Shown here in pieces: positions 8,051 through 45,977 of a DNA stretch of 64,000 nt. Below the pieces are notes generated by a model that was not told the origin of the DNA, ran no database searches, and saw only the letters and a list, made by a program, of their open reading frames with translations. Source of the DNA: Octopus vulgaris (lineage: Eukaryota); contig OX597817.1 of assembly GCA_951406725.2 (NCBI GenBank), positions 78,182,001-78,246,000 on the forward strand, read 5' to 3'. The first letter of the stretch is position 1. Each line of letters starts with the position of its first letter. Position numbers and translations under genes: made by a program.

Positions 8051-8363
8051 TAATAGGTAGATGAAATTGAGGTACATTACTTCAGTCTACTTGATTAATA
8101 AAGGTAGAATGAGATATTTTTACCTCTTGGCTGAAACAGCTGTAAGTTATTTTCCCAATTTATATTCATGTATGTTATTTTGTAATAATTACTGATATCA
8201 TTATATATTAATATATTTTATGTCTTATATGTAAAGCATAATATGTTAAATATGTATGTATATTATTGTAATTGTCAGTTTAGTAAATAAATAAATAAGT
8301 TAACATAGTATAATGTCTAAAAGTTGATGAACCACCTATTGATCCCCTCTATTTTCTTATTGC

Positions 8364-8399: not shown

Positions 8400-8437
<38 letters not shown>

Positions 8438-8438
<1 letters not shown>

Positions 8439-9221
8439 CAATTGAGGATAAAATCTTTAAAAGAAATTATCAGTAGTCAGCGTGAAAACCTCGTAAGAGA
8501 AAAAATCCGTAAATTCTTCCTCTTTGAAAATATTCATTTATATTATATTGAGGGTACTACTATTCGTATACCAACACGCTAAGAGGGACCAATGCAGTCA
8601 AAACTACTAAAAATAAAAAATTTACCGAATGCAAAACTTCAAAACACATCATTTTAAAAAAGAATTCAGTTACATATCACATGTGATTTCGCATTTAATG
8701 CAGAATATGCATTTCATGTTCGTCAGTGCAACAAACTCAAGAAATATAAGAAAAAACATAACATTACAAACTCGATAGCCAACCGTAGAATTCGTCGTAG
8801 CATGTACGAATGTTTATCCTTACATATCTATGAAAATGGCGGGCTTTTTTGCAATGCATTTCGGTAACAAATTGCCTAGTCAGAATAAAAATTCAGTATT
8901 GAACTATTCCGGTGAAAAATATAAATTAACAATTGAGGATAAAATCTTTAAAAGAAATTATCAGTAGTCAGCGTGAAAAACCTCGTAAGAGAAAAAATCC
9001 GTAAATTCTTCCTTTTTGAAAATATTCATTTATATTATATTGAGGGTACTACTATTCGTAGATACCAACACGCTAAGAGGGACCAATGCGGTTTTTTAAA
9101 ATGATGTGTTTTGAAGTTTTGCATTCGGTAAAATTTTGTTTATTTTTAGTAGTTTTGACCGCATTGGTCCCTCTTAGCGTGTTGGTATCTATGAATAGTA
9201 GTACCCTCAATATAAAATAAA
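8438..9221 (-). mobile_element. Non-autonomous Penelope-like/retrozyme-like cassette: 491-bp period partial tandem plus inverted copy, flanked by (TA)n
   Basis: Direct repeat 8438-8598 / 8929-9092; 9092-9221 is the reverse complement of about 8538-8661; contains the hammerhead at 8669-8732. Confidence 0.75.
8669..8732 (-). ncRNA. Type I hammerhead ribozyme motif, intact core
   Basis: Minus strand: guugca CUGACGA acaugaaaugca-uauuc-ugcauuaaaugc GAAA ucacauguga UA uguaac. Stem I is 6 bp, helix III is palindromic, and the base of stem II has an A:C mismatch. Confidence 0.8.
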
Positions 9222-9499
9222 AATAATAATATATATATATATATAAAGCAAATAAGTAACAAGGATATCAAGGTATTAATGCATTACAGCTGTTTCAGAT
9301 GGCTCTATTTAATCAATTAATGCAAGCATTATATCAATTTGAAATACACTGCCTTCCTTGGATGCATAAGACAATATAGGTTTTTAACATACAGGATACT
9401 CCATTATAATTTCTTTACCAAATTTTTCATCAGAACTAGAGAATAAAAGAATTACATTCCTGCTGCTATTAGTGTAGCAGAATGAACTTAAAGAGAAAG

Positions 9500-9834: not shown

Positions 9835-10669
9835 GGGCGGTGAATAAACTGTCCTCTAAATTAAGCGAAAATAAAAATAACACTGAGATATCATTTTAAC
9901 AGATATATCTACCAAAATTATATAAAAATATCTTGAAATACTAAAAAGTAAATTTATTCATGAAAATCGCCATTGGCTTCAACCATAGCCTCCAGATGAC
10001 TTTGGAATCTTCTGCAACTCTTCTGGACAGTTTCCTTGTCTAAGATGGTGAATGGTGCCATAATCATTGCTTTCAGTTCATCTTTGCTGTTTGAAGGAGT
10101 TTTGATAGTCTCTCGCTCAACTGTGCCCCACACATAATAATTAAGGGGGTTGCAGTCTGGAGAGTTAAGTGGCCAGATGATAGGGAGTGATGTAGTTGTA
10201 GAAATTGCCTCACAGCCTTGACTGTGTTCCACTGATTTTGTGGCATGGTGCAGAGTCTTGTTGCTAGACACAGGGCCTTCCAGCAACCACCCTCTTTACC
10301 CAGAGCAGCACTATCTCCTCCAAGCACTTGATGTAGACCTCTGTGTTGAGTGTGATGCAGTGTGAGAAGATGAATGGAGGCATAACATCACCATCACTAG
10401 TGTTCACTCTAAACACCATGATGTTGACTAGATGTTTGATTTTTATCACTCTTGGTACATGTCCTCAGATTGCACTGTCCTTATATTGACACCCAAACAC
10501 TCTGAAATGTTTGTATTGGATTTCCAGCATGACTGTCAAGCAGTACAGCATTTTGTTTCCAAATTTTTGACAGAGTGAATCATCTCATGCTACTGTTTTT
10601 CTCACAGACGGTGCCCAACGGATCCTACTATATTTAGATGACAAAATCAAAAACAAACAATGCACCCTG
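9831..10669 (-). mobile_element. Tc1/mariner DD37D (maT-like) transposon, internally deleted and frameshifted
   Basis: QQDSAPCH...WPLNSPDCNPLNYYVWG in broken frames; TA at both flanks; same family as 43772-44610. Confidence 0.9.
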
Positions 10670-10687
10670 TATGTATACATATATATA

Positions 10688-10851
10688 AATTAATCGAAAA
10701 TGAAAATAACATTGATATATCATTTTAACAGACATATTTACCGAAATTATATTAAAATATCTTGAAATACTAAAGAGTAAATTCATTTATGAAAATCGCC
10801 ATTGGCTTTAGCCCTGGCTTCCAGATGACTTTGGAATCTTCTGCAACTCTT
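10688..10851 (-). mobile_element. Second 3'-terminal fragment of the same DD37D family
   Basis: Repeats about 9860-10021 (gaaaatcgccattggctt...ccagatgactttggaatcttctgcaactct). Confidence 0.9.
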
Positions 10852-10869: not shown

Positions 10870-10930
10870 GATAACTGAAGAGATGGCGGTGTGGATTTCC
10901 ACCTCGGCATCTGAAACTCAGAGTTTTATT
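10870..10930 (+). ncRNA. Type I hammerhead ribozyme motif
   Basis: gauaa CUGAAGA gaug...gugga..uccaccucggcauc u GAAA cucagag UU uuauu. Long stem II, quasi-palindromic helix III, one extra U before GAAA. Confidence 0.7.
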
Positions 10931-12031: not shown

Positions 12032-12543
12032 AGGTGGCAAGCTGGCAGAATCATTAGCACACCGGATGAAATGCTTAGCAGTATTTCAGCTGCCACTACA
12101 TTCTGAGTTCAAATTCTGCCAAGACCAACTTTGCCTTTAATCCTTTCGGGGTTGATAAATTAAGTACCAGTTAGGCACTGGGGTCGATATATTCGACTTA
12201 ATCCGTTTGTCTGTCCTTGCTGGTCCTCTCTGTGTTTAGCCCCTTGTGGGTAGTAAAGAAATAGGTATTTCACCTGCCACTACATTCTGAGTTCAAATTC
12301 CGCCGAGGTCAACTTTGCCTTTCATCCTTTTGGAGTTGATAAATTAAGTACCAGTTACACACTGGGGTCGATATATTCGACTTAATCCGTTTGTCTGTCC
12401 TTGCTTGTCCTCTCTGTGTTTAGCCCCTTGTGGGTAGTAAGGAAATAGGTATTTCACCTGCCACTACATTCTGAGTTCAAATTCCACTGGGGTCTACTTT
12501 GTCTTTCATCCTTTCGGGACCAATAAAATAAGTACCAGTTGAC
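12032..12543 (+). mobile_element. SINE family A with a 184-bp internal unit repeated about 2.5 times
   Basis: gtatttca(g/c)ctgccactacattctgagttcaaattc recurs at 12081, 12265 and 12449. Confidence 0.95.
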
Positions 12544-21340: not shown

Positions 21341-21543
21341 TTATATGTATATACACATTCCAAATAAGTTAGAGGTTGTGAATCGAACCAACTAAGGGAT
21401 AATATCTATCCAATATACGGCTGGTAGAATAGCCAATTATTAATACACAAGTGTTTTTTATTGCATAATACAATGTATTATTGACATAATACAATGTCTA
21501 AAAGTTGATGAACCACCTATTGATCTGCTCCATTTTCTTATTG

Positions 21544-21599
<56 letters not shown>

Positions 21600-21602
<3 letters not shown>

Positions 21603-21770
21603 ATGGGTAAATTGTTGCAATTTTATAGTTTTTAATTTCGTGCATACACATTGTTTAATTTTGATTTTGTCATCTACACAGTATAGTAGGGTCAGTTGGG
21701 CACTGTCTCTGAGAAAAACAGCACCATGACCCAATTCACTTAACAGAAATTTGGAAATGACATGCTGTAA
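21600..21770 (+). mobile_element. 5' end fragment of the DD37D transposon family
   Basis: gtgatgggtaaattgttgc...cagttgggcactg...gaaatttggaaatgacatgctgta matches about 43778-43948. Confidence 0.85.
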
Positions 21771-22297
21771 ATTTACTCTTTAGTACTTCAAGCTATTTTT
21801 ATGTAATTTTGGTAAATATATTTTGGTAAAATAAATTTTGGTAAATATATTTCTTAATTTCGTGCATACACATTGTTTAATTTTGATTACATTGCTACAT
21901 AAGTGTGAACAATTCTATGTACTATGCTGGATACATTTGGTGTTCATCTGGTATGTTGATTTTTTGTTCATTTTTTTTTGTGTCTTGATTATGCTTGCCT
22001 GGATGATTAAAAAGTGCATTTTGTGCACTAATTATGAAATCATATAATCTGCAGCTGAATCTGGTTTTAAAAGGCTCGCTTTGAGAGTTGCATTCCCTCG
22101 CATTCAGTACAATGTGTTTATAATGGTAGTTTTGACTTTAAGAATCCCTCCTAGCATGAGGCATTTATGTATAGTAATGCCCTTAGTATAAATAAATATA
22201 TTTAAAAGGAATAATTAATAAAATTTCCCTTATGAGGTTTTTAACACTAACTACTTGATAAATTCTTATAAAGATTTTATCCTATTTTTCAATTATA

Positions 22298-43400: not shown

Positions 43401-43432
43401 CAAACATACATATATGTATATGCATAAGTGTA

Positions 43433-43496
43433 TAGAGTCTGATGAGCCGCCTATAAGGCTAAGCACTTTATAGAGGGGAAACCATTGGTCACTCTA
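43433..43496 (+). ncRNA. Type I hammerhead ribozyme motif, intact core, GUC cleavage triplet
   Basis: uagagu CUGAUGA gccgccuauaagg-cuaagca-cuuuauagaggg GAAA cc-auu-gg UC acucua. Stem I is a perfect 6 bp; predicted cut after 43490; G:G mismatch at the base of stem II. Confidence 0.8.
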
Positions 43497-43691
43497 AGAG
43501 CAGCCATAATATAGATATATATATATAGGTGAAAAAAGATTAGAGATCTATACAAATCCAATTTTTATATATAAAAGATGGAGATAGAAATAGTACAGAA
43601 GTAAGTCTAAGACATTTCAGTTTAAGAGGGAATTTAATAAGTATATATATATTTCTATATCTCTATCTATCTATCTATCTATATATAAATA

Positions 43692-43771: not shown

Positions 43772-44609
43772 CAAAGGGTGATGGGTAAATTGTTGCCATT
43801 TTATATTCTTAATTTTTTGCATGTGCATTATTTGTTTTTGATTTTGTCAACTACACATTATAACAGGTTCAGTTGGGCACTGCCTGTGAGAAAAACAGCA
43901 CTATGATGCAATTTACTCTGCCTGAAATTTGGAAATGATATGCTGTACTGCTTGGCATTGACACCAGAAACTCCAATACAAGCATTCCAGAGAGTTTGGG
44001 TGTCAATCTAAGGACAGAGAAATCCGAGGACATGTACTAAGAGTGATAAAAATCAAGTATTCAGTCAATGTGATGGTGTTTGGAGTAATCACTCGTGATG
44101 GTGAGGTTATGCCAAGTGCCTGGAGGAGGTAGTATTGGCCTAGGTAAAGGGTGTGGATGCTGAAAACCCTATGTCTGGTAATAGAACTCTGTACCATGTC
44201 ACAAAAGCAGGAGAACTCAGTCATGGCTGTCAAACAATATCTGCAACCACATCACCCACTAACATCTGGCCACCTAACTTCCCAGACTGCAGACCCCTTG
44301 ATTATTATGTGTGGTGGGCAGTTGAGCGAGAGATCAACAAAACTCTTTCTTACACTAAAGATGAACCGAAGGCAAGGATTATAGCAGCATTCACCAACTT
44401 AAACAAGCAGACTATCCAAAAGAGTTGAAGGAGATTCCAAAGTCATCTGGTGGCTGTGGTTGAAGCCAACGGCGATTTTATTGAATAATTTTACTCTTTA
44501 GTATTTCAAAATATTTTAATGCCATTTTGGTAAATATATCTGCTAAATGAGATGTCAGTGTTATTTTCATTTTTGTGTAATTTAGATAACAGTTTATTCA
44601 CCACACCCA

Positions 44610-44910: not shown

Positions 44911-45588
44911 ATATACATATATATAAATAGGTTTAAGAGACAGAATCACCTTCAAGCAGCTCAAATGACATTGAATAACATTATCTATGATAGAGATATA
45001 TAAGATTAAATTTTATCAAAATTAATATCTACAGTTACTATTCTATTAAATGGAATATATAGACAAATGTTAATAAGAATTATCTCCCCCTACACCGGAG
45101 CTTCGTTGGAAGCCATGATTGATTCGCGAAGAGGGAAATTTCAAAAAGATAAGTTAATATTTCTATTTCGTTTTCTTATTTAAAAAATTTTTATTATTAT
45201 TATTTTTTATTCCTCATTTTTGTTCTTTATTTAAGGATGAAAAATTATTTTGACGATTTCTAGTTGTATAGTTTTGATTGTCATGTCTTTATATATGATG
45301 TTAATAGCAAAATAGTTGTATATAATCTAGACCTGAAGATTGGCAGTATAGTCGGATTGATATGGTATTGAATTTCAAGACCATCTATTTCAGCAATACC
45401 GATAAATATATTGTTATGAAATGTGCGTTGTCTATATAATTTAATATATGATTCAGAAAAGTAATTGTAGATATTAATTTTGATAAATGTTAATCTTACA
45501 TATCTCTATCATAGATAATGTTGTTCAATGTTCTTTGAGTTGCTTGAAGGTGGTTCTGTTTCCTAAACCTATTTATATGTATGTATAT
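44911..45588 (+). mobile_element. Penelope-like cassette with about 155-bp inverted repeats and a hammerhead
   Basis: 44911-45066 is the diverged reverse complement of 45428-45588. Confidence 0.8.
45328..45434 (+). ncRNA. Type I hammerhead ribozyme motif with long stem II
   Basis: uagac CUGAAGA u-uggcaguaua..ucggauug...caauaccga..uauauuguua-u GAAA ugugcg UU gucua. Helix III looks like a CpG-decayed cgcgcg palindrome. Confidence 0.7.
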
Positions 45589-45900
45589 AATACAGCGAGA
45601 AATTCATTTTAGAACCACTAAATTGAATTTCTCTCCCCTGTGGACTCGGAAAGAACTTCTCTAATATTAATAATTATATATATATATAATTATTAATATG
45701 TATGTATGTATATGTATATATAATTAGATGTGTACGCATATATCTATCTATCTATATACAAATTAGTGTACATTTAAACACAACAAACACGACCCTTAAC
45801 AGGCAGCCTTACATGCTAGAAGGCGCAGTCAAAACAACCAAAACCACATTTAAGAGCAATTTCGAAGGGAATGAAATATAAAAACTTTTACCTTGCTTTT

Positions 45901-45977
45901 TACAGCCATACCTAGGTTTCAAACTCTAATTAGTAATTAAAGTATTTTGTTAGGCAGAGTTCTCCTCAGTGGCTACA
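45901..45977 (-). ncRNA. Type I hammerhead ribozyme motif, intact core
   Basis: Minus strand: uguagcca CUGAGGA gaacucu...agaguuu GAAA ccuagg UA uggcugua. Stem I is 8 bp, stem II base is 7 bp, and helix III is palindromic. Confidence 0.88.

Follow-up and report, generated by a model that had tools for sequence, protein, structure and literature searches.

Animal retrozymes have been proposed to be non-autonomous derivatives of Penelope-like elements (bioRxiv 10.64898/2026.07.22.740005; PMC7229834), and in the accounts available their Penelope-driven movement has so far been argued from shared ribozymes, co-occurrence and phylogeny. Insertions of Penelope-like elements are described as having several hallmarks, i.e. 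a partial tandem, an adjacent inverted and 5'-truncated copy, a tail at one side only and a bias for (TA)n targets (PMC8557442; PMC3846280). For the anole element, both strands are reported to be nicked at AT-rich sites, with the tail arising from initiation at two internal sites (PMC11167929), whereas such inversions have also been attributed instead to self-priming on an antisense template (PMC3846280). In cephalopods both hammerhead motifs and Penelope-like families are on record (PMC6962438; PMC13282606; supplement of PMC8557442).

Here we describe a cassette within 64,000 nucleotides of Octopus vulgaris DNA (the window), in which a retrozyme-type monomer itself bears the Penelope insertion signature of an inverted head, a one-sided tail and a TA target. 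The setting is AT-rich, microsatellite-dense eukaryotic DNA with 23-41% GC per 2 kb and no recognisable long gene frame, and runs of (TA)5 or longer make up 4.4% of the window. Based on our analysis we consider it quite probable that the cassette derives from a 491-nt non-coding, high-copy hammerhead unit of the non-LTR retrozyme type, and that an autonomous Penelope-like element supplied in trans the reverse transcriptase and endonuclease for its insertion into a TA microsatellite, the RNA template being longer than the unit.

Three pieces in a TA microsatellite

The cassette is composed of three pieces, copies A, B and C, lying within a TA microsatellite (Table 1). A sequence-only reading had described a direct repeat (8438-8598 and 8929-9092) with a period of 491, followed by an inverted copy at 9092-9221, and our alignments confirm both: the period is 491, reaching 494 past indels, and the inverted piece is the reverse complement of 8661-8537 with 93% identity. 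The near-identity claimed for the repeats was slightly overstated, as substitutions amount to 1-3% and indels come in addition, i.e. 2 substitutions and 2 indel events separate A and B over 164 columns, 3 substitutions and 3 indel events separate A and C over 130 columns, and 2 substitutions separate B and C over 64 columns. Weak similarity of copy C may extend to about 9228, corresponding to about 8530. Since B and C overlap they can fold back on each other, a by-product of the arrangement; this hairpin had been noted before at about 55 bp, which is too short, its arms (9029-9092 and 9158-9221) being 64 nt long with a predicted stability of -69.9 kcal/mol as DNA. As the insertion is flanked by microsatellite, no target-site duplication is readable. 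The proposed likeness to the Penelope pseudo-LTR layout holds, with a partial tandem, an inverted copy joined 5'-to-5', a one-sided tail and a TA target.

Table 1. Features of the cassette and of the diverged second copy (positions are those of the window)
Feature	Position	Strand	Basis
(TA)n microsatellite, left target flank, adjoining the 3' end of the unit	8404..8437		sequence
Copy A, complete 491-nt non-coding monomer, 31% GC, 3' end at 8438	8438..8928	- (RNA sense assumed to be the ribozyme strand)	repeat comparison; end-to-end coverage in 4/4 runs
One-sided 3' extension ('tail') of about 92-99 nt, in A and B, missing from C	8438..8536	-	copy alignments; loose contig ends
Type I hammerhead motif	8662..8738	-	pattern scan, predicted fold
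Predicted cleavage site, after A17 (8675); 3' product from 8674	8674..8675	-	core-base assignment
Copy B, 5'-truncated tandem copy of 8438-8598, pseudo-LTR-like, without ribozyme core	8929..9092	-	repeat alignments
Copy C, inverted copy of 8661 to 8537, 5'-to-5' joint with B via 1 shared base, without ribozyme core or tail	9092..9221	+	repeat alignments
Fold-back of B with C, arms of 64 nt with 97% complementarity around a 65-nt loop	9029..9221		repeat comparison
AT-only right flank with (TA)8 at its end	9222..9245		sequence
Single copy of the same family, about 70% identical, 3' end against (TA)n as in the cassette, decayed ribozyme core	21890..22297	+	alignments

The cassette is non-coding, as had been stated before: the longest stop-free frame lying fully within it has 69 aa, and a Pfam scan of 8 of its 21 listed frames gave no family at the cut-off (0/8). 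A coding relic on the plus strand, suggested by a stop-poor appearance to the eye, was rejected, as the stop-poorness is within chance (198 of 2000 Markov-simulated sequences are equally stop-poor) and no Pfam family was found. An ORF for a reverse transcriptase or GIY-YIG endonuclease is absent from the cassette, and visual inspection of the window's 62 long frames revealed none either.

Alternatively, the tandem and the inversion might have been made at the DNA level after insertion, by duplication and fold-back, or the inverted arm might be an artefact of assembly or library, both of which we regard as highly improbable. The cassette's own inversion joint (8598/8661) is missing from the joints listed for four public runs, whose contigs lose rare forms; moreover, the junction is AT-rich and palindromic, and the comparison with the runs was confined to 8438-8928. 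However, the two arms differ at 2 of 64 positions and about 63 nt of C are missing from B. Copy C is unlike A at six events and was therefore not copied from the adjacent assembled sequence either. Further opposite-strand joints were listed for two of the runs (8658/8900 in run X1 and 8612/8741 in run X3), and an unrelated repeat of the window (44911-45660) has a similar inverted-plus-tail layout.

A high-copy family with a 491-nt monomer

Part of the stretch is contained in 20 of 24 listed public runs, 11 of which hold at least half of its words. Contigs of four runs were placed on 8438-8928 alone, with the flanks outside the comparison, and all four cover every bin of the unit (957, 1137, 575 and 25 contigs). 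In the three large runs the summed depth, which is not a copy number, is about 1.5e4-3.9e5, as compared with 34-167 for the individual contigs listed. The unit is a high-copy repeat, in agreement with what the sequence-only reading had presumed. The head-to-tail joint from 8928 to 8438 was found in all four runs (depth 211, 5500, 6955 and 17), and thus 491 nt is the family-wide monomer and not a chance truncation. Of the earlier proposal of a multimeric or circular RNA template of about 491 nt, the 491-nt monomer and a template longer than the unit are supported.

The recurrent joint bears directly on another explanation, namely that the cassette is a pile of 5'-truncated 3' ends left by an autonomous Penelope-like element, with 491 being merely the truncation point of one copy. 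Most Penelope-like insertions are indeed reported to be 5'-truncated, and partial tandems are formed (PMC8557442; PMC4209133); in addition, the similarity of the diverged second copy in the window fades near the equivalent of 8835. Nevertheless, the same junction in four of four runs, at a depth of up to about 7000, and the lack of a coding remnant in the cassette make this very unlikely, and the recurrent junction largely refutes it. None of the 24 loose ends listed, beyond which there are 199 more, could be attached to a coding body.

The loose ends also bear on where the copies terminate. TA repeats stand before 8440 and 8445 in run X6 and before 8530 in run X2 (four contigs). Recurrent 3' ends are thus found at about 8438-8445, in an AT-rich internal motif far from the predicted cut, and a second recurrent 3' end, likewise in an AT-rich internal motif far from the cut, is probably located at about 8530-8537, as indicated by copy C and by one loose-end row of four X2 contigs. 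Both motifs resemble the target, and a (TA)n or AT target is seen at both flanks of the cassette, at the diverged second copy and at the two X6 loose ends. Run X6, whose RNA label is guessed, contains both the unit and the junction, its contigs revealing neither strand nor ends nor circularity. A pile-up of ends does not appear in the run table, contigs being unable to show one. Pattern scans of metagenome contigs and of genome contigs gave no locus each, and a single motif-pattern locus (L001) was dropped as it reads as a chance match within bacterial coding sequence.

Elements of this kind are ordinary in this DNA, the window containing two further hammerhead motifs and a second inverted-plus-tail cassette. 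The two additional motifs are complete and of type I (43431-43500, plus strand, core at 43439; 45897-45977, minus strand, core at 45969), and in the latter stem III is palindromic and helix I has 8 bp. The second Penelope-like layout, located in TA repeats at 44911-45660, has inverted arms at 44911-45066 and 45428-45588 (87-90%), an extension of about 70 nt at one side only (45589-45660) and, near 45330, possibly a decayed hammerhead core. Neither the ribozyme repeat at 45969 nor 45067-45665 was accepted as a homologue of the monomer, as the alignment scores are under the best shuffled score.

Decayed hammerhead-like relics are found on either side of the cassette, at 8133 (plus strand) and 9296 (minus strand), both facing the microsatellite and having a palindromic stem III in common. 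They do not align past the motif (score 21 as compared with a shuffled mean of 19), and thus we discarded the idea that they are the two arms of one older element. The microsatellite may serve as a repeated landing site. The end of another repeat (8300-8363 and 21481-21544, 91% identical over 64 nt) adjoins a microsatellite in the vicinity of each of the two 491-nt family copies.

Other repeats in the window are two 77%-identical copies of an element at 9839-10665 and 43823-44602, with fragments at 10682-10851 and 21600-21832, which from a transposase motif is presumably Tc1/mariner-like. At 12081-12540 a 184-nt unit from a dispersed repeat family is repeated in tandem about 2.5 times, and a weak hammerhead-like core at 10875 (plus strand) appears in a looser scan only and is gone under a stricter one.

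The hammerhead and the RNA template

The sequence-only reading had placed a ribozyme on the minus strand, with a predicted 3' product starting at 8674, about 13 nt from the position at which the inverted copy starts (equivalent to 8661), and our assignment agrees. Every core base is present, with C3-A9 at 8726-8720, G12-A15.1 at 8690-8687 and U16.1-A17 at 8676-8675. Helix I is formed by 8732-8727 and 8674-8669 (6 bp) with a predicted extension to 8738/8662, stem II comprises 8718-8692 with an internal loop, and stem III is a 12-nt palindrome (8687-8676). In this copy, however, an A·C mismatch takes the place of the canonical G10.1-C11.1 pair. A descriptor composed after the motif had been seen has one match in the monomer and none in 20,000 dinucleotide shuffles; over the window it has three matches, as compared with none in each of 30 shuffles. 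Rfam gave no match at gathering and nine at E<=10, no hammerhead being among them. The miRNA matches were rejected, as they correspond to the fold-back and to microsatellites and are all below their own gathering scores.

A dimer formed via the extended palindromic stem III, as has been described for type I motifs of animals (PMC4209133), is predicted at -46.6 kcal/mol, as compared with -30.0 kcal/mol for two monomers. The predicted pair probability of helix I depends on the context: it is 0.81-0.94 in 8660-8740, 0.6 in 8655-8760 and at most 0.3 in the remaining seven of nine windows, i.e. only short windows yield the active fold in the prediction. Together with the mismatch at 10.1-11.1, this context folding suggests that the ribozyme of this copy would have weak activity. 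Moreover, the cassette cannot release a monomer by double cleavage, because only copy A carries the ribozyme core, and this copy is probably a passive product rather than a source of circles.

In the wider family the motif varies. A subfamily with the canonical G10.1 accounts for 57, 8, 14 and 48% of the depth in the four runs, and N7 is variable with two other alleles, U or A. Variants at invariant core bases are not among the variant rows listed, beyond which there are 13 more, and these bases are too few to prove much. The diverged second copy retains nine of nine standard pairs in stem II, three of them via compensatory changes on both sides, and has a U·U at the base of this stem where the cassette has A·C.

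As to the template, we lean towards a linear multimer, with a circle as a serious contender. In the rolling-circle model of Cervera and de la Pena (PMC7229834) the RNA read by reverse transcription is circular. A ligated 491-nt circle read in this way would be a sub-case of the trans-mobilised unit and is not exclusive of it; in this specific form we find it possible, if on balance doubtful. The cDNA passes an intact predicted cut site and the head-to-tail junction is family-wide, as expected for a circle, and retrozyme circles of 170-400 nt are reported from coral, mussel and axolotl (PMC7229834). The predicted circular fold (-100.6 kcal/mol) is somewhat more stable than that of shuffled sequences (z -2.1; 2 of 100 shuffles are equally stable), but just 61% of the bases are paired in it. 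For repeated passes of one circle, however, A and B should match, and they differ at 8516, a position at which either allele is common within the family (T at 97, 13, 16 and 63% of depth). These depths are crude, though, and the pattern could also stem from gene conversion or recurrent mutation. The 8516 alleles hint that a multimer with differing units was copied, rather than one circle passed repeatedly. Additionally, the main substrate of the anole element is described as uncleaved RNA, with no reads ending at the cut in the account available (PMC11167929), and the head-to-tail contigs read alike for a circle and for a tandem.

The hammerhead might also set the end of the inverted arm, as 8661 would be reached if the template began at a cleaved hammerhead (8674) or if reverse transcription stalled at the base of helix I. 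We regard this as a lead that is unlikely on present evidence. The predicted extended helix I (3' strand 8674-8662) borders directly on 8661, run X1 has an independent opposite-strand joint at 8658, with 2 bases of slack, and two alleles are common to B and C and not found in A, as expected if both derive from an upstream cleaved unit. On the other hand, only one of the four other inversion ends (8612, 8658, 8741 and 8900, the joint geometry being read from two-number rows) is near 8661, corresponding to p = 0.056 for a 7-nt window and 0.15 for a 20-nt window, both picked afterwards. The T4A6 run at 8652-8661 with its 8-nt palindrome could itself favour fold-back, and the prediction loses helix I once more context is included. 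Over the 64 nt that all three copies share, the private events number 2 in A, 2 in C and 0 in B, so that equal distance is possible, and the anole ribozyme is reported to be dispensable in vitro (PMC11167929).

We speculate, with considerable doubt, that the template of the family is a linear RNA which owes its 5' end to the family's own hammerhead, and that priming occurs from both target ends. The inverted arms would then end where ribozyme helix I has its base (8658-8661), and the main arm would read through a second, uncut ribozyme. If true, a genome-wide pile-up of inverted ends at 8658-8661 would testify in vivo both to the shaping of Penelope/retrozyme templates by hammerhead cleavage and to the use of the Penelope machinery by retrozymes, the tail being nearly three times as long as published.

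Proposed insertion route and relation to known elements

Irrespective of how the inverted arm ends, the insertion of the hammerhead unit in trans may be pictured as follows. A source locus holding two or more units would be transcribed, and the enzyme would nick TA-rich DNA and prime at an internal AU-rich site, corresponding to 8438. Copying would then span one full unit, passing through the intact ribozyme, and continue for 164 nt into the next one (1.33 units). Priming from the other DNA end would use another AU-rich site, located about 95 nt inward (8530-8537), from which 125-130 nt would be copied. Finally, the cDNA ends would meet 5'-to-5' at 9092, giving the inverted arm, which lacks a tail. 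The autonomous partner was not found, none of four short exact words occurring in the Naiad/Chlamys supplement of PMC8557442. The interpretation offered by the sequence-only reading is partly supported.

The locus on its own is an ordinary copy and probably passive. The family, by contrast, is abundant and fairly young, and mapping of its ends would test the circle against the linear multimer as well as the in vivo role of the hammerhead cut. The literature searched, which did not include subscription papers or repeat libraries, contained no report of the 491-nt family or of inverted ends piling up at a hammerhead.

Several features of the unit recur in metazoan non-LTR retrozymes as characterised in PMC7229834 and by Li, Clavereau and Pollet (2026, bioRxiv 10.64898/2026.07.22.740005), i.e. 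a non-coding tandem unit with a length of a few hundred nt and low GC content (<50%), a type I hammerhead and a high copy number, and also a palindromic stem III suited to cleavage as a dimer. Even the mismatch at the base of stem II has a described counterpart, axolotl HHR_Amex2 having a U·U where the cassette has A·C. With 491 nt the unit exceeds the range of 150-450 bp given in PMC7229834 and lies within the 51-972 bp of bioRxiv 10.64898/2026.07.22.740005. The preprint calls a locus 'active' if it has two consecutive units with a complete ribozyme, whereas the cassette has one ribozyme. Because the locus falls short of this rule and both cleavage and circles are putative, the label retrozyme is provisional and applies to the family. 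Moreover, an inverted arm and a tail go unmentioned for retrozymes in the available text, 'inverted' having no occurrences in that of PMC7229834. As compared with the minimal hammerhead type (PMC4209133), the motif of the cassette is canonical in shape, with a 6-bp helix I and no extra base after A9.

The arrangement of the copies, in turn, corresponds to insertions of endonuclease-bearing Penelope-like elements (Penelope/Poseidon and Neptune, also Naiad), for which a pseudo-LTR and a head-to-head inverted, 5'-truncated copy are described (PMC8557442; PMC3846280; PMC11167929). A tail-like extension at a single end, an AT-rich or (TA)n target and a hammerhead within the repeated part are likewise shared with these insertions. 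The cassette differs from Penelope-like elements in that it has no reverse transcriptase/GIY-YIG frame and in that its tail is about 92-99 nt long, as opposed to the 30-40 bp given in the published descriptions available. It also differs from Naiads, in which canonical hammerheads are reported to be missing (PMC8557442). Non-autonomous Chlamys elements, e.g. MRC1, resemble the unit in being short and in forming pseudo-LTRs and head-to-tail insertions (PMC8557442). They are found in a green alga, however, hammerheads are described as mostly missing, and their autonomous partners are known via similarity of the 3' ends, whereas none is identified for the 491-nt unit (PMC8557442). Taken together, the unit behaves like a non-autonomous, Penelope-mobilised element and has the structural marks of an animal non-LTR retrozyme family, and thus probably adds a new member to an already known class of small parasitic retroelements.
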